A stretch of 44,077 bases of DNA from Shigella phage EP23, in the sequence record JN984867. One strand, given 5' to 3'. Under the pieces are notes generated by a model that worked only from the letters and a program-made list of their open reading frames with translations, was not told the origin of the DNA and ran no database searches. Shown in pieces: positions 11,374 through 42,542 of the stretch. Each line of letters begins with the position of its first letter. The stretch's first letter is position 1. The position numbers were made by a program, and so were the translations under genes.

Positions 11374-11736
11374 ATGGCTAAAGCACCACTCTTTACACTT
11401 GACCCTAAGCCGACTTTTAAGCTGCCGATTGAAATCCCGCGCCCAGGCGAAAACGAACCGGGCAAAATGACGTTTACCGTGCGCCACCGTCCGATCGACG
11501 AGTTTTCGCAGACCATGCAGGATACTGAGCGCAAGTTATCGGAATATGACGACAATGACCCGGACGGCTTTAACGTTATGGTCGAGGCCATCATGCACGT
11601 AGCAGAAGGCTGGAATCTGCCGGACGAATTTAACGCGGAGAACGTCCGCCGCCTGGTGGTCAACTATCCGCGCGCGTTCGGCGTGTTCCACACTTCGTAC
11701 TATCTCGAACTGATGGGATTGCGTGAAAAAAACTAA
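11374..11736 (+). CDS. tail assembly chaperone (gpG-like)
   Basis: 120 aa. The ATG at 11374 lies behind GGAG (the track used an upstream TTG). Ends at the slippery site GAA AAA AAC TAA. Confidence 0.8.
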   Translation: MAKAPLFTLDPKPTFKLPIEIPRPGENEPGKMTFTVRHRPIDEFSQTMQDTERKLSEYDDNDPDGFNVMVEAIMHVAEGWNLPDEFNAENVRRLVVNYPRAFGVFHTSYYLELMGLREKN

Positions 11737-12050
11737 TTGAGGCGGCGCGACGCTTTTATGGCCCGCCGCCACCCTCCGAAGATTTAGCCGCGAGTTTATG
11801 GGGGGCGACCCCGGAAGATGTTTGCCCCCCGGTTGCACTATGGCCCGACAATGCGAAGGTAGTCGCAGTCTTCACAGATTGCTCCACGCAATGGCGCACC
11901 GGATTCGGTGGTGCATACGGCATTGACTACGGCGTACTGGAATGGCTTTTTAAGATGCACGGCATCGAAAACGCGCAGCGTGCGTTTAAAGATATTAAGC
12001 TAATGGAACGCATTGCGCTGGACGAAATGGCGCGGCATAACCCCGCATAG
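11374..12050 (+). CDS. tail assembly chaperone frameshift product (gpGT-like), -1 PRF at 11727-11733
   Basis: I translated the -1 frame from 11733 to the TAG at 12048-12050. It is open for 105 codons and encodes a gpT-like sequence: ...ALWPDNAKVVAVFTDCSTQWRTGFGGAYGIDYGVLEWLFKMHGIENAQRAFKDIKLMERIALDEMARHNPA. Confidence 0.75.
11727..11733 (+). other. slippery heptamer A AAA AAC for the G/GT -1 frameshift
   Basis: An X XXY YYZ pattern in the G frame, 1 codon before the G stop. Confidence 0.7.
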
Positions 12051-12323
12051 CAAATCGGGACAGGCGGGACGTCCCGATTTATCCCGTTCTGTCCCGCACA
12101 TCTAAAAACTGCATATTTACCCACTACGATTGCATAAACTAAAAGCGGGACAGGGGTGCTGTCCCGATCTGTCCCGCCCCTCAAAAGTGAATGGCTATGC
12201 GGTTTTTCTGCATAAAACAAACGGGACAGAAAGCGGGACAGAATGAGGCGGGACAAAGCGGGACAGCACCCCTGTCCCAGTCAGTGCTGCCGCGGGTTTT
12301 GACCGATCGGGACAGGCGGGACA
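12051..12323. repeat. array of GCGGGACA boxes (module 1)
   Basis: GGGAC starts at 12057, 12066, 12147, 12223, 12235, 12250, 12260, 12309 and 12318. GTCCC lies at 12071, 12091, 12161, 12171 and 12274. The 19-bp palindrome GGGACAGCACCCCTGTCCC is at 12260-12278 and its reverse complement at 12147-12165. Confidence 0.85.
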
Positions 12324-12377
12324 ACTCCCAGTCTTTCAGACTAGACGGGGGTCAGCGGCCCCCCTCGTCTGAGACTG
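12308..12377 (+). repeat. 70-bp element, copy 1 (identical to 39263-39332)
   Basis: cgggacaggcgggacaactcccagtctttcagactagacgggggtcagcggcccccctcgtctgagactg. Compared base by base with copy 2: 70/70 identical. Confidence 0.95.
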
Positions 12378-12446
12378 AATAAGGTTTGTTTTAAATTCGC
12401 TGATACAATGACCGACGGCAACTGCATAAAAAAGGGGGACTGCATA

Positions 12447-15089
12447 ATGGCAGATCAGGCAGCGGGCATCACGCTCAAGGCGGACGTCGCGCAAATTAAA
12501 ACGGCTAATACTGTGCTGGACACATTTGCGCAGAAATCCGAGAACACAGAACAGAAAGTAAAGAAATTAAACGACACCCTCGGCAAGTCGAAAAAGGTTA
12601 CTGGCGACGCCGCGGGCGGAATGGAAAAGTTAGCGACTGAATCGCAGCGTGCCGCCGATGGCATGACGAAACAGGAGCGACTCGCCAGCCGATTAGGCAT
12701 GTCGACCAAAAACCTGGGATTCGCATCGCGGAACGCCGCATTCCAGTTACAGGATATTGCGGTGACGCTTGAGATGGGTATGCCGGTGCACCGCGTTATG
12801 CTTCAGCAGTTACCGCAGCTTACTGGGGCGTTTGGCGGACTGGGTAACACGCTGCGATATGTTGCGGGCTTTCTCGGCCCAGTAGGGATCGGCCTTTCAG
12901 CATTAACGGCGACGTTAGGCGTAGGGGTGGCAATTACGACCCGCGCAGAGAACCAGGTGGCGGCGCTTAATAAGACGCTGGCGCTGTCCGGTAATATTTC
13001 AGGCCTCACAGCTAACCAGATCCTTGTGCTGTCCGAGAACGCCGAGCGCATGGGCGGGTCATTTCGCAAGACGCGTGACACAATCCAGGCGCTGGCGGCG
13101 GCGGGTGTGAAAGCGGGTGGTGACTTCGGCGCATTGGCTAAGGTAGTTAATGACTTTGCGAAGGTGTCCAGCCAGCCGATCGAGGATGTGGTAGCGGCGG
13201 TGGCGAAGCTGTCAACAGACCCCGTTGGCGGACTGCGTGCGCTGGCGGATAAGTATCACGTCGTAAACGAAGCGCAGATCCAGCAGGTACAGTCGCTCGT
13301 TGATGCGGGTCGTGAGACAGACGCGGTTGCGTTGGCTAACAAAACAGCCGCTGCGTCGTTCACCAGCATGACCAATGAGATCAAGGCGAACATGGGTACG
13401 CTTGAGCGATCTATGAACGTCGTCACATCGGCAGCCAAATCAATGTGGGACGCCATCCTGGATGTGGGCCGCGCGCAGTCCTCCAATGAGTCCGAGATGA
13501 AAGCGCGCGAATCACTACAGCGCATGACCACGGCTTACTATGCCGAGATGAAAGCGGTAAACGCTGCCGGTGGGGTAATGACTGAAGCGCAGAAAGCACG
13601 TATTAACATGCTTTACAGCGAACTGGTCGCCCAGGAAAAAGTGGTGGCGTCGCTCACCCTGCGTAACCGTGCTGAGCGAGACAACGCCCGCGCCGCAGAC
13701 GAATCCGCAAAGGCGAACGAGGAGGCCAACCGCACCGCCCGCGACCGCGCTGCGTTCGAGAAGGAGTACGCAACTAACGCGAAGAAGCGCGCCGACGAGA
13801 TCGCCCGCCTCAATTTGCTGAATAAGCGCGGCGTTATTGATGAGAAAGAGCTTGCCGAGGCGGTGAAGCAGGTAAACGAGCGTTATAAAGACCCCGCCCC
13901 GAAGAAGGCCGCCGCTGTACGAGTCGATGCCGGTATGAAAATGCTGGAAGTCGCACGGAGCGAACTGGCCCAGCTTCGAGAATCCGGCAAGCAGATCGAA
14001 GCCAACGCGTCTACGCAGACCCGCACGCAACGCGCTCAAGCGGCCTTAAACAAGCTGATCGCCGACAATGAGCAGTTAATCGCGGCGAGCAAAGAAAGGG
14101 CGCTAACGGCAGCAGAGAAGCAGCAGATGGTAGAATTCGGACGCGTGAAGGAAGTGCGCGAGCAGATTGTCGAAGAAGCCAAACTACTGGACGCGAAAGA
14201 GAAGCAGGTTAAGGCGCACGCGCAGATCGACGCCTTCGTTAAGAACCAGAATGCCGAGCTAAAAGCCACCGCGGCGGGCTATGCGCTTTCTACTCGAGAA
14301 GCGGCAAACCTGCGTGAAGAATTGCAGCTAATCGACCGCCTGAAGCGTGTAGGCGCTAACGATACCGATATTGACAAGGCGGTGTCTAAGCTGCGGGAAG
14401 TGCAGGAGGCGCAGACCGGCGCTAACGCCTCGCTATGGGATGGATTCAGTCGCGGGCTTAAGGATAGCGTGGATGAAATGGGTAACGGATATACGCAGAT
14501 GGCGTCGCTCACGAAATTCACGTTCAGCGCTATGCAGGACACAATGAACGAGTTTTTCGAGACGGGCAAGTTGAACGCAAAGGATATGGTTAAATCCATC
14601 CTGAGCGAGTTAATCAAGCTGGCTACCTCGCAGGCGTTCAAGTCTATCGTTAGCGCTTTCGGTGGTGACGGCGGCAAAAACGGATTGTTCGGCGCTATCT
14701 TCTCTGGCCTCACTAAGAATGCGGACGGCGGAGCGTACGCAGGAGGCAATCTCGCGGCCTATTCGGGGAAAGTGGTAAGCCAGCCTACCTTCTTTAGTTA
14801 TGGCGTCCAGGCGTTCGCTAAGGGTGCGGGATTGATGGGCGAGGCTGGACCAGAGGCCATCATGCCACTGAAGCGCGGGCCGGACGGGAAACTGGGCGTT
14901 GCCGCGTCGGGCGCAGGCGGTGGTATGGTCGTGACGACTAACGTTTACACGGGGACTGGTAAAACGGATACCAGTGTCAGCGGGCCGGACCCCCGTACTG
15001 CGCAAGCGTTCGGCAAGCAAATCACCGAGGCGGTGAAGGCCGAGATCGTGAAAGCGACGAAACCGGGTGGTGTACTTTACAAACGATGA
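12447..15089 (+). CDS. tape measure protein
   Basis: 880 aa, long Ala/Gln/Lys-rich helical protein downstream of G/GT. Start trimmed to the ATG at 12447 behind GGGGGA. Confidence 0.9.
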   Translation: MADQAAGITLKADVAQIKTANTVLDTFAQKSENTEQKVKKLNDTLGKSKKVTGDAAGGMEKLATESQRAADGMTKQERLASRLGMSTKNLGFASRNAAFQLQDIAVTLEMGMPVHRVMLQQLPQLTGAFGGLGNTLRYVAGFLGPVGIGLSALTATLGVGVAITTRAENQVAALNKTLALSGNISGLTANQILVLSENAERMGGSFRKTRDTIQALAAAGVKAGGDFGALAKVVNDFAKVSSQPIEDVVAAVAKLSTDPVGGLRALADKYHVVNEAQIQQVQSLVDAGRETDAVALANKTAAASFTSMTNEIKANMGTLERSMNVVTSAAKSMWDAILDVGRAQSSNESEMKARESLQRMTTAYYAEMKAVNAAGGVMTEAQKARINMLYSELVAQEKVVASLTLRNRAERDNARAADESAKANEEANRTARDRAAFEKEYATNAKKRADEIARLNLLNKRGVIDEKELAEAVKQVNERYKDPAPKKAAAVRVDAGMKMLEVARSELAQLRESGKQIEANASTQTRTQRAQAALNKLIADNEQLIAASKERALTAAEKQQMVEFGRVKEVREQIVEEAKLLDAKEKQVKAHAQIDAFVKNQNAELKATAAGYALSTREAANLREELQLIDRLKRVGANDTDIDKAVSKLREVQEAQTGANASLWDGFSRGLKDSVDEMGNGYTQMASLTKFTFSAMQDTMNEFFETGKLNAKDMVKSILSELIKLATSQAFKSIVSAFGGDGGKNGLFGAIFSGLTKNADGGAYAGGNLAAYSGKVVSQPTFFSYGVQAFAKGAGLMGEAGPEAIMPLKRGPDGKLGVAASGAGGGMVVTTNVYTGTGKTDTSVSGPDPRTAQAFGKQITEAVKAEIVKATKPGGVLYKR

Positions 15090-21680: not shown

Positions 21681-21709
21681 ATAGCCCCTCGCTTGAGGGG
21701 CTATCTTTT
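21681..21709. terminator. bidirectional terminator
   Basis: ATAGCCCCTC-GCTT-GAGGGGCTAT followed by CTTTT, between the convergent J gene and the lipoprotein gene. Confidence 0.75.
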
Positions 21710-21950
21710 AATAATCAATGACGCAGTTTGATGGGGAACCAATCCTGCGGTGTTCGTGGCTAATCTCCTGGCACCACTGACCGGTATATGGTAGCTTTTC
21801 GGTATCGTAAACCAAAGACCCGTCCTCATGTCGCTCAATAGGCTGAGGTATTACACCGGAATTTGGAACGCCTGTGCTTAAGCCGCTGCCACATGCCGTC
21901 ATCAGAAGGCACGCCGCGGGTATTATCAGATTTTTGATTAAAGTTTTCAT
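21708..21950 (-). CDS. small lipoprotein, candidate receptor-blocking superinfection exclusion protein (Llp/Cor-like role)
   Basis: 80 aa. Signal peptide plus lipobox (AACLLMTAC|GSG), SD GGAGA. Antisense gene between the two receptor-binding genes. Start trimmed from 22013 to 21950. Confidence 0.7.
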   Translation of the reverse strand: MKTLIKNLIIPAACLLMTACGSGLSTGVPNSGVIPQPIERHEDGSLVYDTEKLPYTGQWCQEISHEHRRIGSPSNCVIDY

Positions 21951-21980: not shown

Positions 21981-22009
21981 AGTATTACACCGCTCAACCA
22001 AGAATGCAA
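21981..22009 (-). promoter_or_regulatory. candidate promoter for the lipoprotein gene
   Basis: On the minus strand: TTGGTTGCAT (-35 TTGCAT)-17 nt-AATACT, preceded by TGT. Confidence 0.4.
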
Positions 22010-22031
22010 CCAATTTTATGAGGATTTAGCT

Positions 22032-24904: not shown

Positions 24905-24934
24905 ACTATAGTGCAACCAACCTATTGGTTGCAA
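24905..24934 (-). promoter_or_regulatory. sigma70-like promoter overlapping a perfect inverted repeat
   Basis: On the minus strand: TTGCAA-18 nt-TATAGT. The plus strand carries TGCAACCAA-ccta-TTGGTTGCA (24912-24933). Confidence 0.55.
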
Positions 24935-26570: not shown

Positions 26571-26599
26571 AATATAATGCAACCAATATGCTTATGCAA
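26571..26599 (-). promoter_or_regulatory. sigma70-like promoter
   Basis: On the minus strand: TTGGTTGCAT (-35 TTGCAT)-17 nt-TATATT, with a second TTGGTTGCA abutting the -10. Confidence 0.6.
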
Positions 26600-26604
26600 C
26601 CAAT

Positions 26605-28822: not shown

Positions 28823-28851
28823 ACTATACCGCTATGCGACCAATTCAGCAA
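28823..28851 (-). promoter_or_regulatory. sigma70-like promoter
   Basis: On the minus strand: TTGGTTGCTG (-35 TTGCTG)-17 nt-TATAGT, with TTGGTCGCA in the spacer. Confidence 0.5.
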
Positions 28852-29110
28852 CCAATAAATCGCAGTCGGATATGTTGTCGATAACGCGAACGTCAGCACC
28901 GCGGCGGGCCATTCGCTCATGTTCACGTACCTGGTGCGGCTTCGGTTTTCCTCCGGGGCGCTTCACTTCGACGAACACTATTTTGCCGTTGATGATAATA
29001 ATCAGGTCGGGCGCACCTGCGCGCCCCTCCCATGCCAGTTTTCGGCAGAATCCGCCAACATCTTTCACCCGTCTCATCAGGTGGCTTTGAATCTTGCCTT
29101 CTGGTGTCAT
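28832..29110 (-). CDS. VRR-NUC domain nuclease
   Basis: 92 aa. GAPDLIIIINGKIVFVEVKRPGGKPKPHQVREHERM matches the VRR-NUC core (D...EVK). Its ATG overlaps the polymerase stop by 1 nt (TAATG). Confidence 0.8.
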   Translation of the reverse strand: MTPEGKIQSHLMRRVKDVGGFCRKLAWEGRAGAPDLIIIINGKIVFVEVKRPGGKPKPHQVREHERMARRGADVRVIDNISDCDLLVAELVA

Positions 29111-32100
29111 TACTTGCGGTAGCGATACATGCAATCGCCCTCTGCGGCAAGTGGGAAGCCTTTCGCCCAAACCGGCAGGTCGCACATCAGCGCGCACAAC
29201 TCCTCGGTTGTGTAGTCGTCGGTATCCGGCACTTCGGTTATCAGCTCATCGTGTACGGAAAGTACGATCTCATACCCCGCAGCTTCAACGCCAGGCATGG
29301 ACCATGCGAGAATATCGCGGCACAACGCCTGTACGATGTTTTCCGTCAGTTTGCCGCCGTAGGTATACTGGAATCCCCACTGGCGCGTCGTCTGATTCTC
29401 GCCCTGATATTTAATGCGTGTGCTGGTGCGCTTCTTGCCGGTGTCTTCGTCGATCTCGGTCGTGACAGACAGCGCGATGCCAGGGTAGCTCATGATGCGC
29501 CCTGACGGCAACTCAATTTTAAGCCACCACCCCGCCGCGTTCGGGTCGTCGCGCTCCTCGTCGAAGGTCGGGTCATGCTTCGCCTTCGTTCGAACAATTT
29601 TGAGCGCTTTCCTGCCATCCGGGCGAACGTTCGCGCCAGCCCAGTACGCTTTGCCCGGATTGCGGATCGCGCAGAGCACCGCGTCCTCCAGTTCGGCCCA
29701 AAAGGCTACCGTCATCGGGTGAGACTCACGCCACATACGTTTGATCGCGTCACACGTCAGCCACACGTTTTTCGGCAGTATGTAAGTTGGGCGCTCGTCT
29801 TTCTTGCCAGGCTTCGGCGGGCGCTTCTCCTCGTTAATGCGAGCGTACTCATAACCCCGCTTCGCCGCCGCCCAAATGTGATCCGGGAATGTGCCCTTCA
29901 TGACGTCAGCCATAGTGTAAAGGTCGAGGCCCAGGTTTTTAGCGAACTGCAAGAACGCCGCGACGCCGCCACCATAGCCCAGGCCAAGCTCGCAGTTATG
30001 CGCCACCAGAAAACCAGACTTAGACGCAATAAGGAACCGGTTTCCGTCTTCCACATCAATCAGGTCGTAAACCGGCTCGCAATAGGTTAACTTCCCGTTC
30101 CAGTTCAGCAATGCGGGTAAGGGCTTCATCGTACTTTCTCTGAAGCTCGGGCACGCTGCGCCGGTTACGGCAGTTTTCCGAACGGCTGACAAACCGAAGG
30201 TTTCCAGGCTCATAGTCGCCGTCTGTATCGATCCTGTCCATTTCGAAGTCTGGCTTATCCCAGCCGTCCAGCGTTTGAACGTAGAGAAGAAACGACCTTT
30301 TATCTCTCTTCCATTCGTCACATACGGCAATCCCACGACCGCCGTAGTTTTTATACCCTTTGGCGCGGGGGTTTGTCGTTCGTGATATTGCCGCTGACAG
30401 CCGGTTGAGTAGCCGCGTTCTGTGCGCATCGTCTGGCATTGCGTCATCGTAGCAAAAATACTGTTTACGATACCGCTTTGTCGCTTCAATTGCGCAGAGG
30501 TTGCATTGGGATGTTTTACCCCTTCGGACGTTGTCATACCCGACGCGTCCTGGCATCGCTCCGCAATCACATTGGGCCAGCAGTTGTCTGTGACCCTGTC
30601 GTTTTGGTAATTCGCGCAGGATAACCAGGCGTCCATACCTCTCGCCAGGGCGCGGACCATCGTGCACCTGTCTGAAACGAGTTGCCTTGCCTCCTTCCAT
30701 GAATGCGTCAAGATTTTGTGGTCTTCTGTCATCAAGACCCCGTCCACGTCTATCACTGGTTTCCACCCCATAAGGTGCGCGCCTTTTGTACTCACCCATT
30801 TTTCGCCGTTCCATACTTTATCCGTTGATGTTACGGCCATAATATCCTTGAACCCGCCATTGGTCAATACTTGGGTATGGCGGTGCAAGCAAGCCTTACC
30901 GATCTGGCGTAAGTCCTTGCGGTTGGCTTTAATGTAATCCGGGTCAAGGCCGAACATCTTACCGGCAGTCTCGCAATAGATATCGCGACCGGCCTTAAAG
31001 ACCATTAACGCTGTTTTCTCGCCAGCGATCCAGGCAAGTCCACGCCCTTCCACATTGGAGTAGTCCGCTACGACAAACTTCTTGCCCTTCGCCGGAATAA
31101 TGCACCCGCGAACGGTCGAGGCCGTTAGCTTCGATATGTCATACGCCCAGTGTGCGGTCCCGCGTAACAGGGAGTTGATGCCGTTGGTGAGCATGTGCGA
31201 CCGGACCCAAAACGAGACGTCGCTTTCACCCTCGCGGCGTTTAATCTTCCCTTCGTGGTCGTCGCTGTACTCGCCACGCGCCAGGTTTTGAGGCTGGAAG
31301 CCTTTGCCCGCCCAGCGCAGCGTGCGCTTTGCGCCGCCATACTGAAGACACCCACGGCGGCGACCATCTGCGGATAAGCCGTTAACTAGCGGATTGTACT
31401 TAGTCGATGCCGTTGATGACGCCCCGAGGCGCATTTCGATAAGCGCTTTGCCTTCGTCGGGGAAGTCCGGGTCTTCAAGCAGGTCGTTAAGCGTGGATTT
31501 CTGCGCGTTGTGGATCGTGAACGCCGGGGCGATATCACGCAGGATTGGCAGGAAGTCATTGCCTGTCAGCTTACCGCCAAATCGCTCCCAGGCTTCTTCC
31601 TTCAATTCTTCCTTATGCGCCTGCACCGCTTTGATCGCGGCGTTCGCCAGGTCAACGTCGACGTAGAAGCCGCGGTCGTTAATCAACTGGTCGATGAGCA
31701 GGATTTCATCTTCCTTAGGCGAGTTTCCCCAGTCCGGTATGCGCCAGTAGACTTCACGCATTGCGATAATATCCAGCGCGGCATAGCGCAGAAATTTGGC
31801 CCATTCTTCCGGGTGAGTCTCGCGAGTGTAGCGGCGGATTTTGTAGGTCTTAGGGGTAGGCTTACAGAATCGGTTAATCAGCGCCTTGCCTGCCTTATCC
31901 TTCGCGTGCTCTGCGTCAACGCCCAGAACCTGGCACTGCATATCGAGGCTACCGGGCAGCGCGTGGCGAAAGGCCATAATCATAGTGTCTTCGATCTGGC
32001 TTACCGGCAGGTCAATACCCCACTTCTCGCGGATAACCAGGCGGTCAAACAGGAGGCCGTTAGCCATCACTATTTTAGCCTTCTTGCGGGATACCCGGCG

Positions 32101-32298
32101 GAGCGCCTTGCGCAGTTCACGCGGCATTGTGGGGGATTCAGTGGCATCCCATGTCTGCACGCGGCCCTCGTCTATGGCGTAGGTGCAAATCATAATCTCT
32201 GTGGTTGGGTGCTCCGCGTAGGCGTACGCCCCAACTTTCTTCAGGTCCACCCCGCTAAATGTCTCGGTGTCGAGAAACAGGCGTTCGAAGTCTTTCAT
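29110..32298 (-). CDS. family A DNA polymerase precursor with 3'-5' exonuclease domain, interrupted by an intein
   Basis: Exo I FLDTETFS. Polymerase motif B is split as RQIGKA|C...HN|CELGLGYGGG. Exteins are 30892-32298 and 29110-29994. Confidence 0.9.
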   Translation of the reverse strand: MKDFERLFLDTETFSGVDLKKVGAYAYAEHPTTEIMICTYAIDEGRVQTWDATESPTMPRELRKALRRVSRKKAKIVMANGLLFDRLVIREKWGIDLPVSQIEDTMIMAFRHALPGSLDMQCQVLGVDAEHAKDKAGKALINRFCKPTPKTYKIRRYTRETHPEEWAKFLRYAALDIIAMREVYWRIPDWGNSPKEDEILLIDQLINDRGFYVDVDLANAAIKAVQAHKEELKEEAWERFGGKLTGNDFLPILRDIAPAFTIHNAQKSTLNDLLEDPDFPDEGKALIEMRLGASSTASTKYNPLVNGLSADGRRRGCLQYGGAKRTLRWAGKGFQPQNLARGEYSDDHEGKIKRREGESDVSFWVRSHMLTNGINSLLRGTAHWAYDISKLTASTVRGCIIPAKGKKFVVADYSNVEGRGLAWIAGEKTALMVFKAGRDIYCETAGKMFGLDPDYIKANRKDLRQIGKACLHRHTQVLTNGGFKDIMAVTSTDKVWNGEKWVSTKGAHLMGWKPVIDVDGVLMTEDHKILTHSWKEARQLVSDRCTMVRALARGMDAWLSCANYQNDRVTDNCWPNVIAERCQDASGMTTSEGVKHPNATSAQLKRQSGIVNSIFATMTQCQTMRTERGYSTGCQRQYHERQTPAPKGIKTTAVVGLPYVTNGREIKGRFFSTFKRWTAGISQTSKWTGSIQTATMSLETFGLSAVRKTAVTGAACPSFRESTMKPLPALLNWNGKLTYCEPVYDLIDVEDGNRFLIASKSGFLVAHNCELGLGYGGGVAAFLQFAKNLGLDLYTMADVMKGTFPDHIWAAAKRGYEYARINEEKRPPKPGKKDERPTYILPKNVWLTCDAIKRMWRESHPMTVAFWAELEDAVLCAIRNPGKAYWAGANVRPDGRKALKIVRTKAKHDPTFDEERDDPNAAGWWLKIELPSGRIMSYPGIALSVTTEIDEDTGKKRTSTRIKYQGENQTTRQWGFQYTYGGKLTENIVQALCRDILAWSMPGVEAAGYEIVLSVHDELITEVPDTDDYTTEELCALMCDLPVWAKGFPLAAEGDCMYRYRK
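29995..30891 (-). mobile_element. intein (299 aa) in polymerase motif B
   Basis: Block A CLHRHTQVLTNGGFKDI, block B LMTEDHKILT, C-terminal blocks VYDLIDVEDGNRFLIASKSGFLVAHN followed by the +1 Cys. Boundary codons checked on the sequence: 30889-30891 = Cys, 29995-30000 = His-Asn, 29992-29994 = Cys. Confidence 0.85.
30056..30814 (-). CDS. HNH-family homing endonuclease-like ORF nested inside the intein in the -1 frame
   Basis: Motifs GERYGRLVIL, CDCG...QCNLC, YKNYGGRGIAVCDEW, MDRIDTDGDYEPGNLRFVSRSENCRNRR. 30814 is the maximal ORF start. The ATG at 30700 (214 aa) lies just before the conserved core. No clear SD at either start. Confidence 0.7.
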   Translation of the reverse strand: MERRKMGEYKRRAPYGVETSDRRGRGLDDRRPQNLDAFMEGGKATRFRQVHDGPRPGERYGRLVILRELPKRQGHRQLLAQCDCGAMPGRVGYDNVRRGKTSQCNLCAIEATKRYRKQYFCYDDAMPDDAHRTRLLNRLSAAISRTTNPRAKGYKNYGGRGIAVCDEWKRDKRSFLLYVQTLDGWDKPDFEMDRIDTDGDYEPGNLRFVSRSENCRNRRSVPELQRKYDEALTRIAELEREVNLLRAGLRPD

Positions 32299-33198: not shown

Positions 33199-33263
33199 TT
33201 TCCAATTCCTCATTTTCACATGTATCGGGGTTATTGGAAGCCACCCCGTTCGGCTTGGTTGCT

Positions 33264-33292
33264 AATTTACTTGGTTGCGCCTGAGCGGTCAA
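33264..33292 (-). promoter_or_regulatory. sigma70-like promoter for SSB/polymerase genes
   Basis: On the minus strand: TTGACC-17 nt-TAAATT, with GCAACCAAG in the spacer and AGCAACCAAG just after the -10. Confidence 0.5.
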
Positions 33293-35562: not shown

Positions 35563-36078
35563 TTAATCTTCCAGTTCGAAATAAGTTTCGACGATTTCTT
35601 TTAGCTCTTTGTGGAAGTCTTCGACGTCGTCATCTTCCAGCTTAGCGATTGATTTGATCTCGAACGATTCCAGAAGGTCGTCGAATTCGTCGTTCGCATC
35701 GTCGTCATCGCCACCGGCGATAATCGCGGCATACTGTTTGATTTCGTCGCGCATCTCCGCCAGCGGATCGGCATCTTTCTTACCTTTGCCTTTCGCCGGT
35801 GCTTTCTTAGACTTAGCCGGTTTTTCGTCTTCGGCATCGGCATCGTCGTCGTCATCTTCTACGACTTCTTTTTTGGCCTTACCTTTCGCCGGTGCTTTTT
35901 TGGTTTTCGCCGGGGCTTCGTCTTCAGCGTCGTCATCTTCTACGACTTCTTTTTTGGCCTTAGACGGCTTCTTGTCTTCCTGTTTACCAACGGCAGCGCC
36001 AACGGTTTCATAATGCTTAGCGATGATTTCCAGTGCTACTACGCCGCGAGTGATCAGGTTTACGATTTGCTCAAACAT
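35563..36078 (-). CDS. highly acidic early protein with Lys/Ala-Asp/Glu repeats (171 aa)
   Basis: SD GGAGA before the ATG at 36078. Repeats KKEVVEDDD..DE.PAK.KKAPAKGK. First gene downstream of the strong 36275-36303 promoter. Confidence 0.65.
   Translation of the reverse strand: MFEQIVNLITRGVVALEIIAKHYETVGAAVGKQEDKKPSKAKKEVVEDDDAEDEAPAKTKKAPAKGKAKKEVVEDDDDDADAEDEKPAKSKKAPAKGKGKKDADPLAEMRDEIKQYAAIIAGGDDDDANDEFDDLLESFEIKSIAKLEDDDVEDFHKELKEIVETYFELED
35780..35965. repeat. tandem ~81-bp repeats within the acidic protein gene
   Basis: gtcatcttctacgacttcttttttggcctta occurs at 35851-35881 and 35932-35962. cctttcgccggtgcttt recurs nearby. Confidence 0.8.
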
Positions 36079-36274: not shown

Positions 36275-36303
36275 ATATTAGATTGGTTGCAGAAGGGAGT
36301 CAA
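36275..36303 (-). promoter_or_regulatory. strong sigma70-like early-left promoter
   Basis: On the minus strand: TTGACT-17 nt-TAATAT, with TGCAACCAA in the spacer. About 190-nt leader before the ATG at 36078. Confidence 0.65.
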
Positions 36304-36420: not shown

Positions 36421-36449
36421 TTGACACCCTGCGGTTTTAGGTGTAGTTT
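36421..36449 (+). promoter_or_regulatory. sigma70-like early-right promoter
   Basis: TTGACA-17 nt-TAGTTT, then SD GGAGA and the ATG at 36481. Confidence 0.6.
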
Positions 36450-36480
36450 CATTGGTCATTAACCAACCGGAGACAGAATA

Positions 36481-36810
36481 ATGAATATCAACGACGCAAT
36501 CGAAATGCTAACGAAGACTGTCTGCAGTGAGACTAGCCGGTCCTGGGCGTATACCGATGCCGTGGGGGCGGTGCTATTTGAAATCGAACGTCTGCGACTT
36601 ACCGAAAAAGAATTGCGCGCGAAGCTGGAATTACTCAACGGTACGGCAGCCAGCAAGCTGCAAAAGCACAATGAAGAAATGGAAGAATACAAAAAACAGG
36701 TTATCCGTTTGCGCGCCGAGGGAAAATCCTGGGCGATGATCGCTGAGTTGACAGGAATTAATCAGAGCACCGTGCGCTCCTGGGTACGCAATAACAAAAC
36801 TTCGAAGTAA
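36481..36810 (+). CDS. HTH DNA-binding protein (109 aa)
   Basis: C-terminal helix-turn-helix KSWAMIAELTGINQSTVRSWVRNN. First gene of the rightward early operon. Confidence 0.6.
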   Translation: MNINDAIEMLTKTVCSETSRSWAYTDAVGAVLFEIERLRLTEKELRAKLELLNGTAASKLQKHNEEMEEYKKQVIRLRAEGKSWAMIAELTGINQSTVRSWVRNNKTSK

Positions 36811-36820
36811 GGCAACGGCA

Positions 36821-39085
36821 ATGAGCTTAATTAAATTCGCTGTAACACGACCCGCTAAAAAAGGCGAAAAAGCCAGGGCGGAAAACTTCCAGATGACCAC
36901 CGATGAATTTTTCGAATTTATCAATGACGCGAAAGAAATATCATCGGTGCATATCAACAAGACCGAGGATAAAGCGGAGTATGCGCGCCGCAAGCGTAAG
37001 GCCGATGGCATCGTAGCGTATACCAGTGACGGCTTACGCCGCAAGACCAGCGCGGTGGACCGCTCGATCCTGTTCTTTGATATTGACCGCACCGACACTC
37101 GCACCTTACGCCGCTGCCGTAAGGCGTTCATTGACGCGGGTCTGGAACACGTATTCCACACAACCACCGGCGACCGCCACCCGCTTAAAGGCGGCACGCG
37201 TTGCGCTCGCTTCCTGGTACTCACTGATAAGCCGGTCCCGGCTGAAGACCTGGGCCGTGTCCAGTATGCGCTATTACATCAACTTGGTCTGTCGGATGTG
37301 GACTTCGACGATTGCACGAAAGACACAAACCGCCTGATGTACCTGCCGCACCAGCAATCGGTTATTAAGTGCCACTACGGCAAACGTGCCCGCGTCCGTC
37401 GTCTGCTTCGCCTGGCGGATACGCTTGGCGTGGAGAAGGAAGAAGTACGCCGCGAGCTTACCCAGGGCGACGACGCAGTGGCGGACGGGATTCTGGACTG
37501 GTGCTTCCAGGCAGGATTTGAGGAGTTATCTTCCGGTCGCGGTTATGAAGTGCCATGCCCGAACGAACATCTGCACAGCGGCGAAGGGTCGACGGCTATC
37601 ATGGTCAAGGATGGCGAGATCCGTTTCAAGTGTATGCACACAGGCAACGAGTGTTGCTCTGAGCTAAATAGACACCAGCACCTGGCGCTACGTCTTATCG
37701 GGATACCGGACCACCTGAACGTCGAGCCGCACAACATGTCGCGTAAGCAAATCGCCGCCATCCTGCCAGGTCTGGACGACGAGGAAGTCGAATCCTTATA
37801 TGATCATATTGTTGATGCAGTTGGCGACGGCGAAGAATACGGCGTGTGCACCGATGCGGATCTGGATAACGAGCCGGTCGCACTATTCAGTAAGCACGAC
37901 CCGATCATCGAAGGCCTGGTCAACTTCAAATCGACCTGGTACATGGCTGGCGAGTCGAACATCGGTAAATCGTTCTACGTGCTGGGCCAAATGGGCGCGG
38001 TTGCCGCGGGGATTCCGTTCGGCGGTGCGAAGGTCGTCCAGTCTCATTGCTTCTATTTCGACGCGGAAGGTGGCGAAGCCTCCAACCAGCGTAAGGAAGC
38101 ATTGCAGATCAAATATGAGCACGACCTGGACAAGCTGCACATTATTGACCTGCAATCACGCGGCTGGGATATCACCAGCAAATCAGGCTTGCGTGAAGTT
38201 ATCAGCTTCATCAACCGCACCGCTAACGGCGAGCCGGTTGGCCTGGTGGCGTTCGACTCACTCAACCAGACTGTTGCGCTGCGGTCCGCCGATGCAAAAC
38301 CGTTCGACGAGAACAACGCCAGCGATATGGGCGAAGTGGTCAAAGCGCTGAAGGCCATTGCGGAAAATACAGGCGGCAGTGCGGGCGTCATCCACCACCC
38401 GGCGAAAGGTGCAAACGGCCGCAGATCTCCCCGTGGGTCCGGCGCGCTGCATGGTGCTGTCGATTCTGCGTTCTTCCTGGAGCAACCGGACGACAACCAG
38501 CCAGGTCAATTGAACCTGTATCACGAAAAGGCACGTAACGGCATCAAGCAAGCGCCGCGCGGCTTCGTCCTGCTCAAGTGCAAGGTTAAGGTGGATCTCC
38601 GCAAGTCCGAAGCGTTCGAAGCCCACCAGTCCACCAGCACCGGGCCAGACTTCGGCGATGTGGTTGCCGGTTGGGACGTCAAACCAATTGCGTCCACCCC
38701 GCGCGACGAGACTCTATACCTCGTACCGGTAGCCCTGGCACCGTTCGCGATAGAACAGGCGAAGGCGGCGGGCAAAGCCGCAGTTAAGGAAGAGAACACC
38801 GCCGGTCCGCGCAACGAAAAAGAGAAAGTGCTTTATGCGGCCCTGGAAAAACTGATGGCAGATAACCCTGACCATACTGGATTCAGTAAATCGGCAATTG
38901 TACGCCAGGCGGGACTCGCTAAGGGTGGCACTTCGACGAAGGCAATCGACGATATGGTCGAGCGCGGCGTGATTGGTTTCTATACAGACCCGCACACCGG
39001 GGCCATATATGGGTCGTCGAATTTAGTCATCAAATCGGAGATCCCCATAACGCTTTCGGCGACCGATGACGACCTGAAAGACTAA
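36821..39085 (+). CDS. primase-helicase (N-terminal primase/polymerase-like domain, zinc finger, RepA/DnaB-like ATPase)
   Basis: 754 aa. LFFDIDRTD, CPNEHLH...CMHTGNECC, Walker A GESNIGKS, Walker B VAFDSLNQ. Confidence 0.8.
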   Translation: MSLIKFAVTRPAKKGEKARAENFQMTTDEFFEFINDAKEISSVHINKTEDKAEYARRKRKADGIVAYTSDGLRRKTSAVDRSILFFDIDRTDTRTLRRCRKAFIDAGLEHVFHTTTGDRHPLKGGTRCARFLVLTDKPVPAEDLGRVQYALLHQLGLSDVDFDDCTKDTNRLMYLPHQQSVIKCHYGKRARVRRLLRLADTLGVEKEEVRRELTQGDDAVADGILDWCFQAGFEELSSGRGYEVPCPNEHLHSGEGSTAIMVKDGEIRFKCMHTGNECCSELNRHQHLALRLIGIPDHLNVEPHNMSRKQIAAILPGLDDEEVESLYDHIVDAVGDGEEYGVCTDADLDNEPVALFSKHDPIIEGLVNFKSTWYMAGESNIGKSFYVLGQMGAVAAGIPFGGAKVVQSHCFYFDAEGGEASNQRKEALQIKYEHDLDKLHIIDLQSRGWDITSKSGLREVISFINRTANGEPVGLVAFDSLNQTVALRSADAKPFDENNASDMGEVVKALKAIAENTGGSAGVIHHPAKGANGRRSPRGSGALHGAVDSAFFLEQPDDNQPGQLNLYHEKARNGIKQAPRGFVLLKCKVKVDLRKSEAFEAHQSTSTGPDFGDVVAGWDVKPIASTPRDETLYLVPVALAPFAIEQAKAAGKAAVKEENTAGPRNEKEKVLYAALEKLMADNPDHTGFSKSAIVRQAGLAKGGTSTKAIDDMVERGVIGFYTDPHTGAIYGSSNLVIKSEIPITLSATDDDLKD

Positions 39086-39173
39086 ATCCTATTTTGAGTG
39101 TTTTTAGCTGGTCGCATTGGTTGCCGTGCAGTATAAATATAGTGAATAGTTATGCAATAAAACTGCATAAAGT

Positions 39174-39278
39174 AAGCGGGACAAAAAGCGGGACAAACTT
39201 GGGGCGGGACAAAGCGGGACAGCACCCCCGTCCCGCCCCGGATGACGCGGCCTGGAGAGGAGCGGGACAGGCGGGACA
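39174..39278. repeat. array of GCGGGACA boxes (module 2)
   Basis: GGGAC starts at 39178, 39190, 39206, 39216, 39264 and 39273. GTCCC lies at 39230. 39204-39234 matches 12248-12278 at 30 of 31 positions. Confidence 0.85.
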
Positions 39279-39332
39279 ACTCCCAGTCTTTCAGACTAGA
39301 CGGGGGTCAGCGGCCCCCCTCGTCTGAGACTG
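39263..39332 (+). repeat. 70-bp element, copy 2 (identical to 12308-12377)
   Basis: 70/70 identity by direct comparison. Confidence 0.95.
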
Positions 39333-39491
39333 CATAAAATCCGGGATTGCAAAATACACGGCAGCACATTGGAAATCGCGGTCGTCGATGAACTGGGCAA
39401 CCAATGCGAGTTGCAGAATGTGGTGTGAAAAATGCAGTTTGCAGTCACAGCTGATAGCGATCAACTTTTTCATGCGCATGATTAATATTGG

Positions 39492-39520
39492 TTGCATTCA
39501 TGCCAGCACCCTGCTAGATT
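39492..39520 (+). promoter_or_regulatory. sigma70-like promoter
   Basis: TTGGTTGCAT (-35 TTGCAT)-17 nt-TAGATT, followed by GGTTGCACACCAAC (the same post -10 sequence as at 6468), then SD GAGGG and the ATG at 39549. Confidence 0.6.
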
Positions 39521-39548
39521 GGTTGCACACCAACATGAGGGCTGAACA

Positions 39549-39875
39549 ATGAAAGCGATTATCTGGAATTACGCAATGGCTATGGCGAAGGCACAAGAAG
39601 CGGCGGAGTTCGCCGGGGAGGGGGCGGAAGCAGTAGAGAGACTATCGGCAGCGTGGTCCGTTGTTCGCGTCACGCAGCAGGCCATCGCCTGTATGCTTGA
39701 GCGCCGCTTCGACACGATGGCGGAGATCCAGCCGTTGGCGAACGCTATCCAGGACTACGCGCTTGCATTTGCCCGTGAACGCCTGGCGTATCGCTTCGGG
39801 ATCGGAGAGACGGCAGTGACAAACGTTGCCCGGATTAAAGCCCAGCGTGAGCTATTCGCCCAGCTTGCGAAATAA
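39549..39875 (+). CDS. hypothetical protein (108 aa)
   Basis: ORF with an SD, downstream of the 39492 promoter. Confidence 0.6.
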   Translation: MKAIIWNYAMAMAKAQEAAEFAGEGAEAVERLSAAWSVVRVTQQAIACMLERRFDTMAEIQPLANAIQDYALAFARERLAYRFGIGETAVTNVARIKAQRELFAQLAK

Positions 39876-39884
39876 GAGGCCAAA

Positions 39885-40154
39885 ATGACCCGTAGACGCG
39901 CAAAACAGCTTTCGTGGCATATCCCCCTGCATTGCATACGAATATGGGCTAAGAATGCGAATGCGGGGGACTCTGTGTACTGGTGCTATCGCGACGACGT
40001 TAAGCCGTTGACGCAGACTCGCTACTTGCACCAGTTCGCCGCGCAACATGATTTCTATGTGCGGACCTCCTTGCAACCAATGGGGATCCGTATTACATTA
40101 CGCCGGAAGCCCGCAGTCGAGCGGGTAGGCAAACACTGGAGACTGAGCAAATGA
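39885..40154 (+). CDS. hypothetical protein (89 aa)
   Basis: ORF 9 nt after the upstream stop. Basic. Confidence 0.5.
   Translation: MTRRRAKQLSWHIPLHCIRIWAKNANAGDSVYWCYRDDVKPLTQTRYLHQFAAQHDFYVRTSLQPMGIRITLRRKPAVERVGKHWRLSK
40071..40099 (+). promoter_or_regulatory. candidate internal promoter
   Basis: TTGCAA-17 nt-TACATT overlapping an exact TGCAACCAA (40072-40080), inside the 39885-40154 ORF. Confidence 0.3.
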
Positions 40155-40693
40155 AATTACTATTCCGCCGAAAATCAGATGGCCGCATTCTTAAGCCAAT
40201 ACAGACCCTTGACACCCATGTGCGACTTCACCACGCCGCAAGCGATCGTGTCTGGTGGGCGAATAAGGCAAAGCTGCCGGAGAAATACGAAATCCTCACG
40301 CATGATATTGAGCGCGGCGATGTGCTGCGTGATATTCGCGACGGGCAATTGTGGGTCGTTGAGCACACCAGCCAGCACGGCTTGCGTATGCAAACCCGCA
40401 AGGGCGGAGTAGTGGGTAACATACAGAGGGTTATGACGTACTTCGGGCTAATCCACTACGAGCGCGTGGGGCGCAAATACTGCCTGCGCAACCGCCAGCC
40501 TCATGAGCGCGCAACCTACGACTCCCACCAGGTGCAAGCGAAGATGGGCCGCGCCGTACACCAAATCGTCAATCGCTTTGATGCCGTGACGAACGCACAA
40601 CGCCATGCGCAGGAATACGGTGTTGGATTCATCCAGGTGGAACGAGACGGCAGCATGAAAGCCATCGACCCGCGCTCGGTGATTCTGAAATGA
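40151..40693 (+). CDS. hypothetical protein (180 aa)
   Basis: ATGA overlap with the upstream ORF. Confidence 0.6.
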   Translation: MKLLFRRKSDGRILKPIQTLDTHVRLHHAASDRVWWANKAKLPEKYEILTHDIERGDVLRDIRDGQLWVVEHTSQHGLRMQTRKGGVVGNIQRVMTYFGLIHYERVGRKYCLRNRQPHERATYDSHQVQAKMGRAVHQIVNRFDAVTNAQRHAQEYGVGFIQVERDGSMKAIDPRSVILK

Positions 40694-40836
40694 GTGCGAC
40701 GATCCGTGATATGCTTCAGCACAACCGCTTTGAAATAGGCGGTCGGGTATTTCGAAATTACTTCGTGGCGCGTGCATGGGCGCGCCATATTGGCAAACCG
40801 GAAGGGGAAATTCGATGCTATACGTCTTCGCGGTAG
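40690..40836 (+). CDS. small hypothetical protein (48 aa; below the ORF-track cutoff)
   Basis: ATGA overlap with the upstream gene. Hand translation: MSATIRDMLQHNRFEIGGRVFRNYFVARAWARHIGKPEGEIRCYTSSR. Confidence 0.4.
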   Translation: MSATIRDMLQHNRFEIGGRVFRNYFVARAWARHIGKPEGEIRCYTSSR

Positions 40837-40916
40837 TATGTGGCGGTAGTCTGGCGGCCCTGGTGCTGTTGGCGTCGGTTATTAGTCTGGTTAAATACCT
40901 ATGGGGCAGATTATGA
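40815..40916 (+). CDS. small single-pass membrane peptide (33 aa; below the ORF-track cutoff)
   Basis: SD GAAGGGGA, sequence MLYVFAVVCGGSLAALVLLASVISLVKYLWGRL. ATGA overlap with the next ORF. Confidence 0.45.
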   Translation: MLYVFAVVCGGSLAALVLLASVISLVKYLWGRL

Positions 40917-41200
40917 TTCATGATGTGATTTATTGGTTTGGTATGGCCAGCATGTTATGCCTGGTTACGGGAGTGCTGGGCGCAATATGGGTATTCCTGG
41001 TATGGCCTGCGGTGGAAGCTGCCAGCATTACCCGGATGACATTCGAGATCTACAAGCGCCGTGGAATAACGGAGCACCCGACCAGGCTTCGGATGTGGTG
41101 GCTGTGGTATCGGGATATGATAGGCGGTCGAACATTCGAAGCCGTCCGCTCATCCGGGTGGGAGTGGAAAGCCGTCGGCAAGTGGTCCGTTTTCGATTAA
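40913..41200 (+). CDS. membrane protein (95 aa)
   Basis: Hydrophobic N-terminal segment of about 40 aa (one or two TM helices; WFGMASMLCLVTGVLGAIWVFLVWPAV). The track start at 40901 is also possible. Confidence 0.5.
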   Translation: MIHDVIYWFGMASMLCLVTGVLGAIWVFLVWPAVEAASITRMTFEIYKRRGITEHPTRLRMWWLWYRDMIGGRTFEAVRSSGWEWKAVGKWSVFD

Positions 41201-41217
41201 TTATGCAAGCGTGATAT

Positions 41218-41252
41218 AGTCCCAGTGAGCTAAAACTTACTGGGACTTTTTT
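41218..41252 (+). terminator. intrinsic terminator immediately before the lysis genes
   Basis: AGTCCCAGT-12-nt loop-ACTGGGACT followed by TTTTTT, abutting the ATG at 41253. Confidence 0.7.
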
Positions 41253-41543
41253 ATGGATAAGCTAAACGAGTGGCTATTCGCCCTGGCATGTCTGGCGGGT
41301 GGCTTCGTAGGCGCACGCATTCATGGTGAGGCTACGAAGGGGCCACTAAACTTCGTTTTGTATGTTGTAGTTGGCTTCTTGTGTGCCATATTTGGCGCAC
41401 CGGCTATTGCCGAGTGGGCTGGTTTGTCGGGTGAGCGCACTGTCGCCGGTTTAGGCTTCGTAACCGCAATCTTCTGGATGCCAATCGCCGACCGGATCAG
41501 GGAGACTATTGCGTCGTTCCGACTTCCGGGGGGCGCAAAATGA
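41253..41543 (+). CDS. holin (three predicted TM helices)
   Basis: 96 aa. Hydrophobic helices, charged C-terminus. Directly upstream of the endolysin region. Confidence 0.65.
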   Translation: MDKLNEWLFALACLAGGFVGARIHGEATKGPLNFVLYVVVGFLCAIFGAPAIAEWAGLSGERTVAGLGFVTAIFWMPIADRIRETIASFRLPGGAK

Positions 41544-41785
41544 TTATCTCCGTCCTGTTGTTTGTTATCATCGGGGCTTCGTCCCTGTTTAACGTGTATG
41601 CGCCGTCCGTCCGGGATGGCATTTTCGGTCGGGTGCTGTATCTGTTAACGGCAATGGTCTGTATTATCGGATTGCTGCAAACAGGAGACGTATCTGATAC
41701 CACATGGACCGCGTTAATCTGGCTGTTTGCATTGCGCACCCTGCGTAATGCTGTTTTGAATGGGGTAAAACATGCGATTCAGTGA
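41540..41785 (+). CDS. second holin-like / antiholin membrane protein
   Basis: 81 aa, 2-3 TM helices. ATGA overlap upstream, and overlaps the endolysin start. Confidence 0.55.
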   Translation: MIISVLLFVIIGASSLFNVYAPSVRDGIFGRVLYLLTAMVCIIGLLQTGDVSDTTWTALIWLFALRTLRNAVLNGVKHAIQ

Positions 41786-42263: not shown

Positions 42264-42279
42264 TACGAGGTAACACAGT

Positions 42280-42447: not shown

Positions 42448-42453
42448 ACAATC

Positions 42454-42479: not shown

Positions 42480-42483
42480 TTGC

Positions 42484-42513: not shown

Positions 42514-42542
42514 GCGACCAATCAACGAGAGGAGTAATCAAG

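Follow-up and report, generated by a model that had tools for sequence, protein, structure and literature searches.

A conserved 9-10-bp promoter-embedded motif in Dhillonvirus genomes, most likely a shared control site for a predicted DNA-binding protein

Comparison with described systems

Functionally, the closest described counterparts of the element reported here are the stoperators of phage L5, the C1 operators of P1, the MotA boxes of T4 and the KorA/KorB regulon of RK2, although none of them fits as a family. In L5 and P1, one regulator coordinates many transcription units through tens of sites that lack dyad symmetry, some of which overlap a -35 element. MotA boxes define a temporal class in T4, and KorA/KorB, of the small coiled-coil/HTH regulator type, act at backbone promoters. 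The DNA-binding modules of serine recombinases read half-sites of ~9-12 bp with variable spacing and orientation, as in the Tn3 and Sin res sites, and CytR tolerates half-sites in either direct or inverted arrangement.

We analyzed a stretch of 44,077 nucleotides from Shigella phage EP23 (JN984867), referred to below as the window. Like the gp71 stoperators of L5 and the C1 operators of P1, the sites of the motif are short, asymmetric and present in many dispersed, mostly intergenic copies (19-23 here). Those systems, however, serve the maintenance repressors of temperate phages and have an identified repressor gene, whereas the window comes from a virulent phage and offers only a candidate binder. 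L5 sites keep one orientation to transcription and act in transcribed regions; here the motif is forward in six promoters and reversed in three to four, and every site overlaps predicted core promoter elements. With the MotA boxes it shares an asymmetric 9-bp box that replaces or overlaps the -35 element while a sigma70 -10 is retained, as well as conservation across related phages, but MotA boxes have one register (centred near -30) and one orientation, whereas at least four registers and reversed copies occur here. Pfam and PHROG searches of 20 early/middle ORFs recognised no MotA- or AsiA-like protein, although small divergent analogues could escape such searches. As with KorA/KorB of the IncP plasmid RK2, identical operators stand in many promoters at varied positions relative to -35 and -10; KorA/KorB operators are palindromic and plasmid-borne, in contrast to these asymmetric 9-mers in a lytic phage. 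Sites of ~9-12 bp, inverted or direct and variably spaced, are also found in Tn3/gamma-delta res II-III and Sin site II, and the AlphaFold2 model of the 109-aa protein encoded at 36481-36810 best matches, at a non-significant level, the serine-recombinase module of an HTH on a long helix. Serine recombinases, however, have a catalytic domain and a recombination locus; here there is no catalytic domain, and the sites lie at promoters.

Parts of the motif resemble binding sites of known factors, namely GTTGCATT (CytR), ATTGGT (PdhR/GntR) and TGGTGCA (NtrC), but its strictly conserved combination of TTGG and TGCA fits none of the three. In respect of the CytR octamer GTTGCATT, a T follows TTGGTTGCA in 8 of 23 copies, the next position is unconserved, and the invariant TTGG lies outside the octamer. 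The PdhR/GntR-FadR arrangement (A)TTGGT-N3-ACCAA(T) occurs in none of the genomes examined, and most copies are without a partner half-site. The motif also departs from the sigma54 pattern (GG and GC 12 bp apart, TGGCAC-N5-TTGCA) and from NtrC sites (TGCACCA-N3-TGGTGCA), GG and GC being 4 bp apart within a copy and at least 16 bp apart between paired copies. Iterons are clustered, regular direct repeats beside an initiator gene and are variable, whereas these copies are dispersed and identical in sequence across clades. Six forward promoters do carry the hexamer of a plain sigma70 -35 element, 17-18 nt upstream of the -10 on the gene strand, but conservation is not confined to that hexamer: the TTGG on its 5' side is invariant, and copies in other registers and in reverse are conserved as well.

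By megablast, the window is a near-complete genome of the genus Dhillonvirus, the HK578/SO-1-like virulent siphophages of E. coli, with best matches 91-97% identical across 85-89% of a 24-kb query. The gene map, built from the ORF list and annotated relatives, comprises rightward structural genes from 56 to 23660, within which lie leftward cassettes at 5080-6441 (Nmad5 and a clamp-like protein) and 21708-21932 (a lipoprotein); a leftward replication/modification block from 23686 to ~36078; and a rightward block from 36481 to 44036 with the HTH protein, the helicase-primase, small genes, lysis genes and a phosphoesterase. The annotated genes of relatives include no integrase and nothing CI-like, and Rfam gave no known RNA family in the window. 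A ~200-bp element occurs twice, at 12186-12382 and 39141-39337 (83% identical), packed with GCGGGACA repeats and with a long hairpin at its end; the record of SO-1 names the two copies regions A and B. The repeat unit of these regions differs between clades, being CGGACA in phiEap-2 and GGGGGAGA in VSiP.

The motif and its promoter layouts

With its flank profile, the window copies give the consensus aTTGGT(T/C)GCa, 9-10 bp in length. Both strands together hold 12 exact copies of TTGGTTGCA, where 0.45 are expected, and none of 100 dinucleotide-preserving shuffles attained that number, so that the genome-wide enrichment proposed in the first-pass annotation holds. ATTGGTTGCA is the most over-represented 10-mer and TGCAACCAA the most over-represented 9-mer of the window, a rank that the motif also takes in L001-L003, and the core TTGGT[TC]GC occurs 23 times in the window. 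Allowing up to one mismatch gives 22 TTGGTTGCA matches against 12 expected; one-mismatch copies therefore count only if they neighbour an exact copy or fall in a promoter gap, and those given weight are at 28835, 28847, 33255, 33271, 39117, 39396 and 42513. One-mismatch matches at 24157, 30884 and 33791 seem to be due to chance. Nineteen of the 20 positions previously listed as exact or one-mismatch copies proved correct on recount, 21993 being CTCAACCAA, with two mismatches. This is a real and strongly conserved promoter-embedded regulatory element. Searches of annotation and of the literature by genus, phage name and literal sequence found no description of the motif, which, within the searched literature, is previously undescribed.

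Most core copies (18 of 23) lie in, or no more than 12 bp from, the non-coding gaps, which account for 7.3% of the genome (binomial 2e-15). Adjacent pairs within 35 bp number seven, against 0.4 by random placement, and pairing has P ~0.005 when sites are restricted to non-coding DNA, which bears out the earlier description of the copies as mostly intergenic and often paired. Six pairs are direct and one is inverted, with start-to-start spacings of 12-31 bp. Outside the gaps are the core copies at 28848, in the last codons of the VRR-NUC gene, and 40073, within the gene at 39885-40154, as well as three further TTGGTCGC copies in coding sequence (27003, 33326 and 41841) that are probably chance. 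The exact minus-strand copy inside the 39885-40154 coding sequence (40072-40080) is invariant over 16 distinct sequences. That the motif sits in nearly every recognisable promoter was, however, overstated: it is present in 10 of the 27 gaps of at least 25 bp, and a degenerate, palindromic form of it, TTGGTcattaACCAA, is all that stands at the best rightward early promoter (TTGACA at 36421).

Promoters are consensus predictions, with sites read in the direction of the downstream genes; the total of promoter-consensus matches in the window is not above that in shuffles, and the searched literature offered neither mapped transcription starts nor binding or expression measurements for these phages. 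Our reconstruction arrived at the same two promoter configurations as the first-pass annotation (its classes A and B) and at all of its promoter coordinates. In the forward class, the -35 is weak (TTGCAt, TTGCAa or TTGCTg), and the motif supplies it and/or abuts the -10. In the six forward promoters, 17-18 nt separate the -35 from a -10 that agrees with TATAAT at 4-5 of its 6 positions (leftward at 6468, 21981, 24905, 26571 and 28823; rightward at 39515). The forward motif takes the registers -39 to -31, where TTGCA and the next base form the -35; -27 to -19; -22 to -14, where one base separates it from the -10; and -8 to +1. The pair spacings of the forward class, 12, 14, 17 and 31 bp, are explained as combinations of these registers. 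In the reversed class, which comprises three to four promoters, the -35s are good (TTGACT 36303 and TTGACC 33292 on the minus strand, TTGACT 42484 on the plus strand), and the motif lies in the spacer and/or directly after the -10. Read on their own strand, the reversed copies lack a usable -10 and therefore cannot be promoters themselves. When the window, L125, the Edwardsiella phage eiAU and one locus of an uncultured clade, clade X, were pooled, -10 hexamers with at least 5 of 6 matches stood at fixed offsets from the motif start, namely +27 (8), +10 (4), +15 (3) and -5/-4 (6), the offset +27 corresponding to TTGCAt as a -35 with a 17-nt spacer. Consensus promoter matches that overlap the motif are those at 24934, 36303, 33292 and 6464 on the minus strand and 42484 on the plus strand.

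At 24912-24933, a minus-strand copy (24912-24920) and a plus-strand copy (24925-24933) form the inverted repeat TGCAACCAA-ccta-TTGGTTGCA, which is perfect on re-reading, as had been stated, and is kept in L001-L003 and L174. The leftward promoter overlapping it has TTGCAA at 24934-24929, an 18-nt spacer and TATAGT at 24910-24905. In the divergent gap 6442-6538, two forward copies on the minus strand (6483-6475 and 6469-6461) accompany a leftward promoter (TTGCAT 6497-6492, N18, TATATT 6473-6468) predicted to drive the clamp-like/Nmad5 cassette, while on the plus strand a perfect TATAAT (6470-6475), upstream of head genes, has these copies on either side. The other leftward cassette, the small lipoprotein gene 21708-21932, has a predicted promoter with TTGCAT at 22009-22004, N17 and AATACT at 21986-21981, with an exact copy (22013-22005) and a degenerate TTGGTTGag with two mismatches on the minus strand of 21993-22013. 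Two forward copies 17 bp apart on the minus strand of 26578-26603 occupy -39 to -31 and -22 to -14 of a leftward promoter with TTGCAT at 26599-26594, N17 and TATATT at 26576-26571. The minus-strand copies at 28835-28855, in the last codons of the VRR-NUC gene, are one-mismatch copies 12 bp apart, and the promoter there reads TTGCTG 28851-28846, N17, TATAGT 28828-28823.

Among the reversed layouts, two one-mismatch copies on the plus strand of 33255-33279, one in the spacer and one directly after the -10, belong to the leftward promoter TTGACC 33292-33287, N17, TAAATT 33269-33264. The leftward early promoter (TTGACT 36303-36298, N17, TAATAT 36280-36275) has an exact reversed copy in its spacer at 36283-36291 on the plus strand, a layout also seen in L125, L295 and clade X. 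The rightward early promoter at 36421-36466 on the plus strand (TTGACA 36421-36426, N17, TAGTTT 36444-36449) is followed, upstream of the HTH gene, by the palindrome TTGGTcattaACCAA at 36452-36466, which is kept in L001, L002 and L174. Just after a terminator, the rightward promoter TTGACT 42484-42489, N18, TATACT 42508-42513 carries reversed copies directly after its -35 (42490-42498) and directly after its -10 (42513-42521), both listed on the plus strand of 42484-42521; the layout TTGACG-TGCAACCAA after a terminator is kept in L125 and L295. The small ORF that follows this promoter was considered as a ribbon-helix-helix protein and rejected, as it encodes a 26-aa hydrophobic peptide.

Around the region-B repeat element, TTGGTTGCC copies at 39117-39125 on the plus strand, with TATAGT at 39138-39143, and at 39396-39404 on the minus strand form a 12-bp inverted repeat (GCATTGGTTGCC / GGCAACCAATGC); the latter copy is 100% conserved against 76% for its flanks. 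Further on, two exact forward copies 31 bp apart on the plus strand of 39488-39527 accompany a rightward promoter (TTGCAT 39492-39497, N17, TAGATT 39515-39520) predicted to drive the genes from 39549 onward, towards the lysis genes, and the palindrome TTGGTTGCAcACCAA (39519-39533) is an extension of the second copy. The full palindrome TTGGTTGCAACCAA, which had been suggested to suit a dimeric HTH protein, has 0 occurrences. The palindromic forms present are TTGGT-N5-ACCAA (6455, 36452 and 39519) and, at one site, ACCAA-N4-TTGGT.

Conservation across phages and candidate binders

At 19 window sites, compared over a maximum of 17 distinct Dhillonvirus sequences, identity is ~1.00 at core positions 0-7 and 0.90 in the flanks, and the intragenic 40072 copy and the 39396 copy are as invariant as the others. 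In TheodorHerzl, jat and CHD5UKE2, too, no k-mer ranks above the motif, which occupies the orthologous positions there. More distant relatives were reached through the HTH protein and the helicase-primase. In the sister clade of L124, L125, L145 and L295, at ~70% DNA identity, the top k-mer is aATTGGTTGC and the layouts are unchanged, among them a leftward early promoter whose spacer holds one or two reversed copies. In phage eiAU (Eiauvirus), with a helicase at 46% identity, 43 kb hold 14 exact copies, their consensus being gTTGGTTGCA, and its promoters include TTGG[TTGCAT]-N17-[TATAGT]TGGTTGCA and TTGG[TTGCAT]tgTTGGTTGCAcactgc[TATAGT]. Motif copies, some of them reversed within TTGACA promoters, are likewise present in clade X (L148-153 and L170), whose helicase is 48% identical. 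The relatives that lack the motif are phiEap-2, VSiP and more than 15 Guernseyvirinae-like contigs, and no diverged version with a genome-wide spread was found in phiEap-2 or VSiP. Unrelated repeats dominated the matches listed in a paired-9-mer scan of viral contigs and in a paired-10-mer scan of genome contigs, the latter with no enterobacterial loci among the matches listed.

The 109-aa protein with a C-terminal HTH, encoded on the plus strand at 36481-36810, is the first gene product of the rightward operon, its stop codon lying 8 nt upstream of the helicase-primase start. Residues 65-105 score above the Pfam thresholds for HTH_23 (30.8 bits) and Sigma70_r4_2 (27.8 bits), which makes it the sole above-threshold HTH and the sole recognisable DNA-binding candidate in the genome. 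Its family comprises 26 clusters among 5.8 billion proteins, with C-terminal 55 residues that are nearly invariant and N-terminal halves that are swapped between lineages. In the AlphaFold2 model (pLDDT 83), a three-helix HTH comes after a long helix (25-79); its best matches by fold, with non-significant E-values, are the E-helix plus DNA-binding domain of Sin/Tn3 resolvases and GerE/LuxR-type domains. By analogy, a long helix carrying an HTH would suit the motif.

The first-pass annotation had named this protein and the HTH fusion at 42685-43827 as binders, and the distribution of both speaks against them. The HTH_23 protein is confined to the Dhillonvirus lineage, and neither tblastn nor the family HMM on six-frame ORFs found a homologue in eiAU or clade X, which keep the motif and its layouts; the family HMM matched only a coiled-coil segment of P858_33 in eiAU. 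The 42685-43827 product is a metallophosphoesterase whose N-terminal HTH matches all fall below Pfam thresholds; a homologue with 75% identity occurs in VSiP, which lacks the motif, and eiAU has none. At the position syntenic with the 109-aa gene, eiAU and clade X encode a 70-aa XRE-type protein, as do motif-less clades; these XRE proteins were rejected as binders, since no recognition-helix signature separates them from those of the motif-less clades. The helicase-primase was rejected as well, as no segment is more conserved in motif-bearing clades and the C-terminus of eiAU is 23% identical. Pfam detected no DNA-binding domain in 20 further small proteins of eiAU and clade X. In a presence/absence screen of all window ORFs, only a Dam-like methyltransferase was found in every motif-bearing clade and went undetected in the motif-less genomes and loci searched, a pattern that may reflect phylogeny. 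Nmad5 is in all three clades and is missing from TheodorHerzl and SO-1; DUF6378 is also in one motif-less contig.

The site is thus preserved without change across three genera that share no recognisable regulator. The most intriguing feature is this frozen DNA element set against exchanged neighbour regulators, which keeps a host factor or a mechanism linked to RNA polymerase in play.

Proposed function and competing readings

The most likely role of the motif is that of a shared control site, which a predicted DNA-binding protein would read. What the analysis shows is that the motif is enriched, lies mainly in non-coding DNA, occurs in pairs, stands at fixed registers to -10 hexamers and is conserved both inside genera and from one genus to another; binding by a protein, the effect of that binding and the identity of the protein are inferred. 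On balance, we favour an asymmetric operator in about ten sigma70-type promoters that would be bound by a sequence-specific protein. The reversed copies, which cannot themselves serve as promoters, make an operator for a trans-acting regulator the best reading; lacking a -10 partner, they are yet conserved as forward ones are, so that the earlier preference for an operator over a plain promoter consensus stands. Forward copies do supply a usable -35 (TTGCAt), and part of the signal could be promoter consensus.

As proposed, this operator would sit in promoters of the early/middle region and of the two leftward "moron" cassettes, and a DNA-binding protein would recognise single sites of 9-10 bp, often two per promoter, with flexible spacing and orientation. 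All registers given above, and the reversed positions in the spacer or after the -10, would fall within the footprint of RNA polymerase, and binding would thus control the promoters jointly. The simplest mechanism would be repression by occlusion of the -35, spacer or -10, serving as a timed shut-off or as feedback; orientation-dependent activation of the weak -35 class is a possible alternative.

Dhillonviruses are common E. coli phages, included in the BASEL collection and employed in studies of defence systems and of therapy, and the searched literature holds no promoter map or temporal programme for them. The motif offers a testable handle, namely about ten predicted promoters with a shared control element and precise bases to mutate. 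For phage engineering, it points to predicted promoters to test and reuse.

As to what would bind, the 109-aa coiled-coil-HTH protein is a tentative candidate, which would be made first, from the rightward early promoter, bind the 9-mers as a flexibly linked dimer and feed back on its own promoter through TTGGTcattaACCAA. The motif is present in every genome that encodes the protein, including L295 with its 45%-identical homologue; the near-invariant C-terminal half matches an invariant DNA target; as the only HTH above threshold, it has no rival of its kind in the genome; and the modelled helix and HTH would suit paired sites at variable spacing. TTGGT-N5-ACCAA palindromes, which are kept in Dhillonvirus proper, are also limited to it, but L125 and L295 have the protein and not the palindromes, and eiAU and clade X display identical motif, registers and pairings while a non-homologous XRE protein holds the syntenic slot. 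Another, so far unrecognised phage protein is an equally tentative choice. A conserved protein of the Enterobacterales hosts, to which the phage promoters would be wired, we regard as rather doubtful. It would fit a slowly evolving partner that eight core positions are identical although replication proteins are 45-48% identical and early regulators are non-homologous, with hosts that span E. coli, Sodalis and Edwardsiella, and the ATTGGT half-site resembles those of the GntR/FadR type, such as the PdhR box. However, no known E. coli factor matches the motif: the PdhR geometry TTGGT-N3-ACCAA is absent, the 3' TT of the CytR octamer is not conserved, and the spacing is wrong for sigma54 and NtrC sites. 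The literature searched offered no match. Motif-less relatives, moreover, infect similar hosts, and the lack of enterobacterial loci with paired 10-mers among the matches listed argues weakly in the same direction. It is likewise doubtful, yet conceivable, that the reader shared by the three phage genera is something other than an ordinary phage repressor. Either the phages would use a conserved enterobacterial protein as a timer or physiological sensor, or small non-homologous phage adaptors would re-target host RNA polymerase in a manner resembling sigma appropriation, with forward copies activating weak -35s and reversed copies silencing strong early promoters. Such a reader would explain a frozen element beside exchanged HTH_23/XRE genes.

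The favoured operator has also to be weighed against readings that dispense with a dedicated regulator. It is unlikely that there is no separate factor and that the motif is a lineage-specific promoter module for host RNA polymerase, possibly with a small phage "appropriator", multiplied by cassette duplication. The dominant register does put TTGCAt exactly at -35 with a 17-nt spacer, longer promoter stretches are shared (GCAAAATTCrCTTGCA upstream of 24933 and 6483; TTGGTTGCACACCAACA at 6469 and 39519), and the HTH protein scores as sigma70 region 4. Against such a module, the invariant TTGG upstream of the -35 hexamer corresponds to no known sigma70 contact, the 9-mer is conserved at three other registers and in reverse, where a -35 role is impossible, and flanks diverge while the 9-mer does not. 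Sites for replication or another DNA transaction (iterons, origin binding) or, for 24912-24933 alone, an RNA hairpin or terminator appear very improbable. The palindrome at 24912-24933 folds with a 9-bp stem at about -19 to -22 kcal/mol in folded segments and was picked up by a terminator scan, but a hairpin is possible for one of ~20 copies, and no U-tract follows it on the transcribed strand. Copies are densest in the gap after the helicase-primase gene, with 4-5 in the window and at least eight in 300 bp of eiAU, and the inverted repeat of the 39117 and 39396 copies around region B makes a replication link conceivable for that cluster. Most copies, however, are single or paired at promoters with no regular array, the helicase-primase has no region more conserved in motif-bearing clades, and the part of iterons would be filled much better by the GCGGGACA repeats of regions A and B, which vary between clades as iterons do. 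In the motif-less phiEap-2, GTTGGCTG lies mostly near the region-B analogue and is accompanied by a local palindrome, TGGAATAAATTATTCCA, and VSiP carries GGGGGAGA iterons.

Duplicated non-coding element and its surroundings

A non-coding element of approximately 200 bp is present twice in the same orientation, at 12186-12382 (region A) and 39141-39337 (region B), with 83% identity between the copies. The counterparts of this element are annotated as repeat regions A and B in the record of the Dhillonvirus relative SO-1. Each copy carries five to seven GCGGGACA(A/G) repeats together with a long GC-rich hairpin (cagtctttcagactaGACGGGGG...CCCCCCTCGTCtgagactg). The 10-mer AAGCGGGACA ranked second for enrichment in every Dhillonvirus genome examined, and the repeat unit of the equivalent element is changed in other phages, to CGGACA in phiEap-2 and GGGGGAGA in Salmonella phage VSiP. 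The duplicated element is likely to be an origin or iteron array. Region B is flanked by the arms of a perfect 12-bp inverted repeat, GCATTGGTTGCC / GGCAACCAATGC (39114-39125 and 39396-39407, 270 bp apart), of which 11-12 of the 12 positions are kept in the relative TheodorHerzl.

Genes associated with predicted promoters

Within the rightward structural block, a leftward cassette (5080-6441, minus strand) holds the genes for an Nmad5 protein (PF18757, 2e-58) and for a clamp-like protein annotated as RusA, and its transcription is driven by a predicted promoter carrying the operator-like motif aTTGGT(T/C)GCa. Nmad5 is missing in TheodorHerzl and SO-1 and is found at different positions in two motif-bearing relatives, Edwardsiella phage eiAU and the uncultured clade X. 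The first leftward early gene, kept in all clades, contains two copies of the 18-bp unit GTCGTCATCTTCTACGAC 81 bp apart (35848-35865 and 35929-35946); its acidic, repeat-containing product (phrog_3127) could be a DNA mimic.

Immediately 3' of the strong predicted rightward promoter at 42484, and 5' of the phosphoesterase gene, lies a 26-codon hydrophobic ORF (MARKDIWVLAIWTTTAFIDMVICELI; 42543-42623, plus strand) with a good ribosome-binding site. The N-terminal part of the metallophosphoesterase follows at 42685-43074 (plus strand), and its first 50 residues gave several sub-threshold HTH matches (GerE at 19.4 bits, HTH_28 and HTH_7). The SO-1 record describes this protein as a 'putative transcriptional regulator', and a homologue with 75% identity is present in VSiP, which lacks the motif.

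Operator-like repeats in relatives

In phiEap-2, another motif-less relative, an operator-like local palindrome, TGGAATAAATTATTCCA, occurs at 11514-11887 and 12650-12669 of its sequence (L131), clustering in two to three intergenic regions close to the spanin and head genes. Three direct repeats in eiAU, AGTTGCG / AGTTGCC / AGTTGGC (L130 24170-24215, at 10-11 bp intervals), resemble incomplete, degenerate versions of the motif. They lie immediately upstream of the -10 element of a predicted XRE-gene promoter.

The enlarged DNA polymerase ORF

The DNA polymerase ORF (29110-32298, minus strand) encodes 1062 residues, compared with approximately 763 in relatives, and encloses an HNH endonuclease ORF (30056-30814, minus strand). 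This arrangement is labelled a group I self-splicing intron in the SO-1 record; an Rfam search at the gathering threshold found no intron. A TTGACC-N17-TATTAT site (30867-30839, minus strand) stands immediately upstream of the inner HNH ORF.
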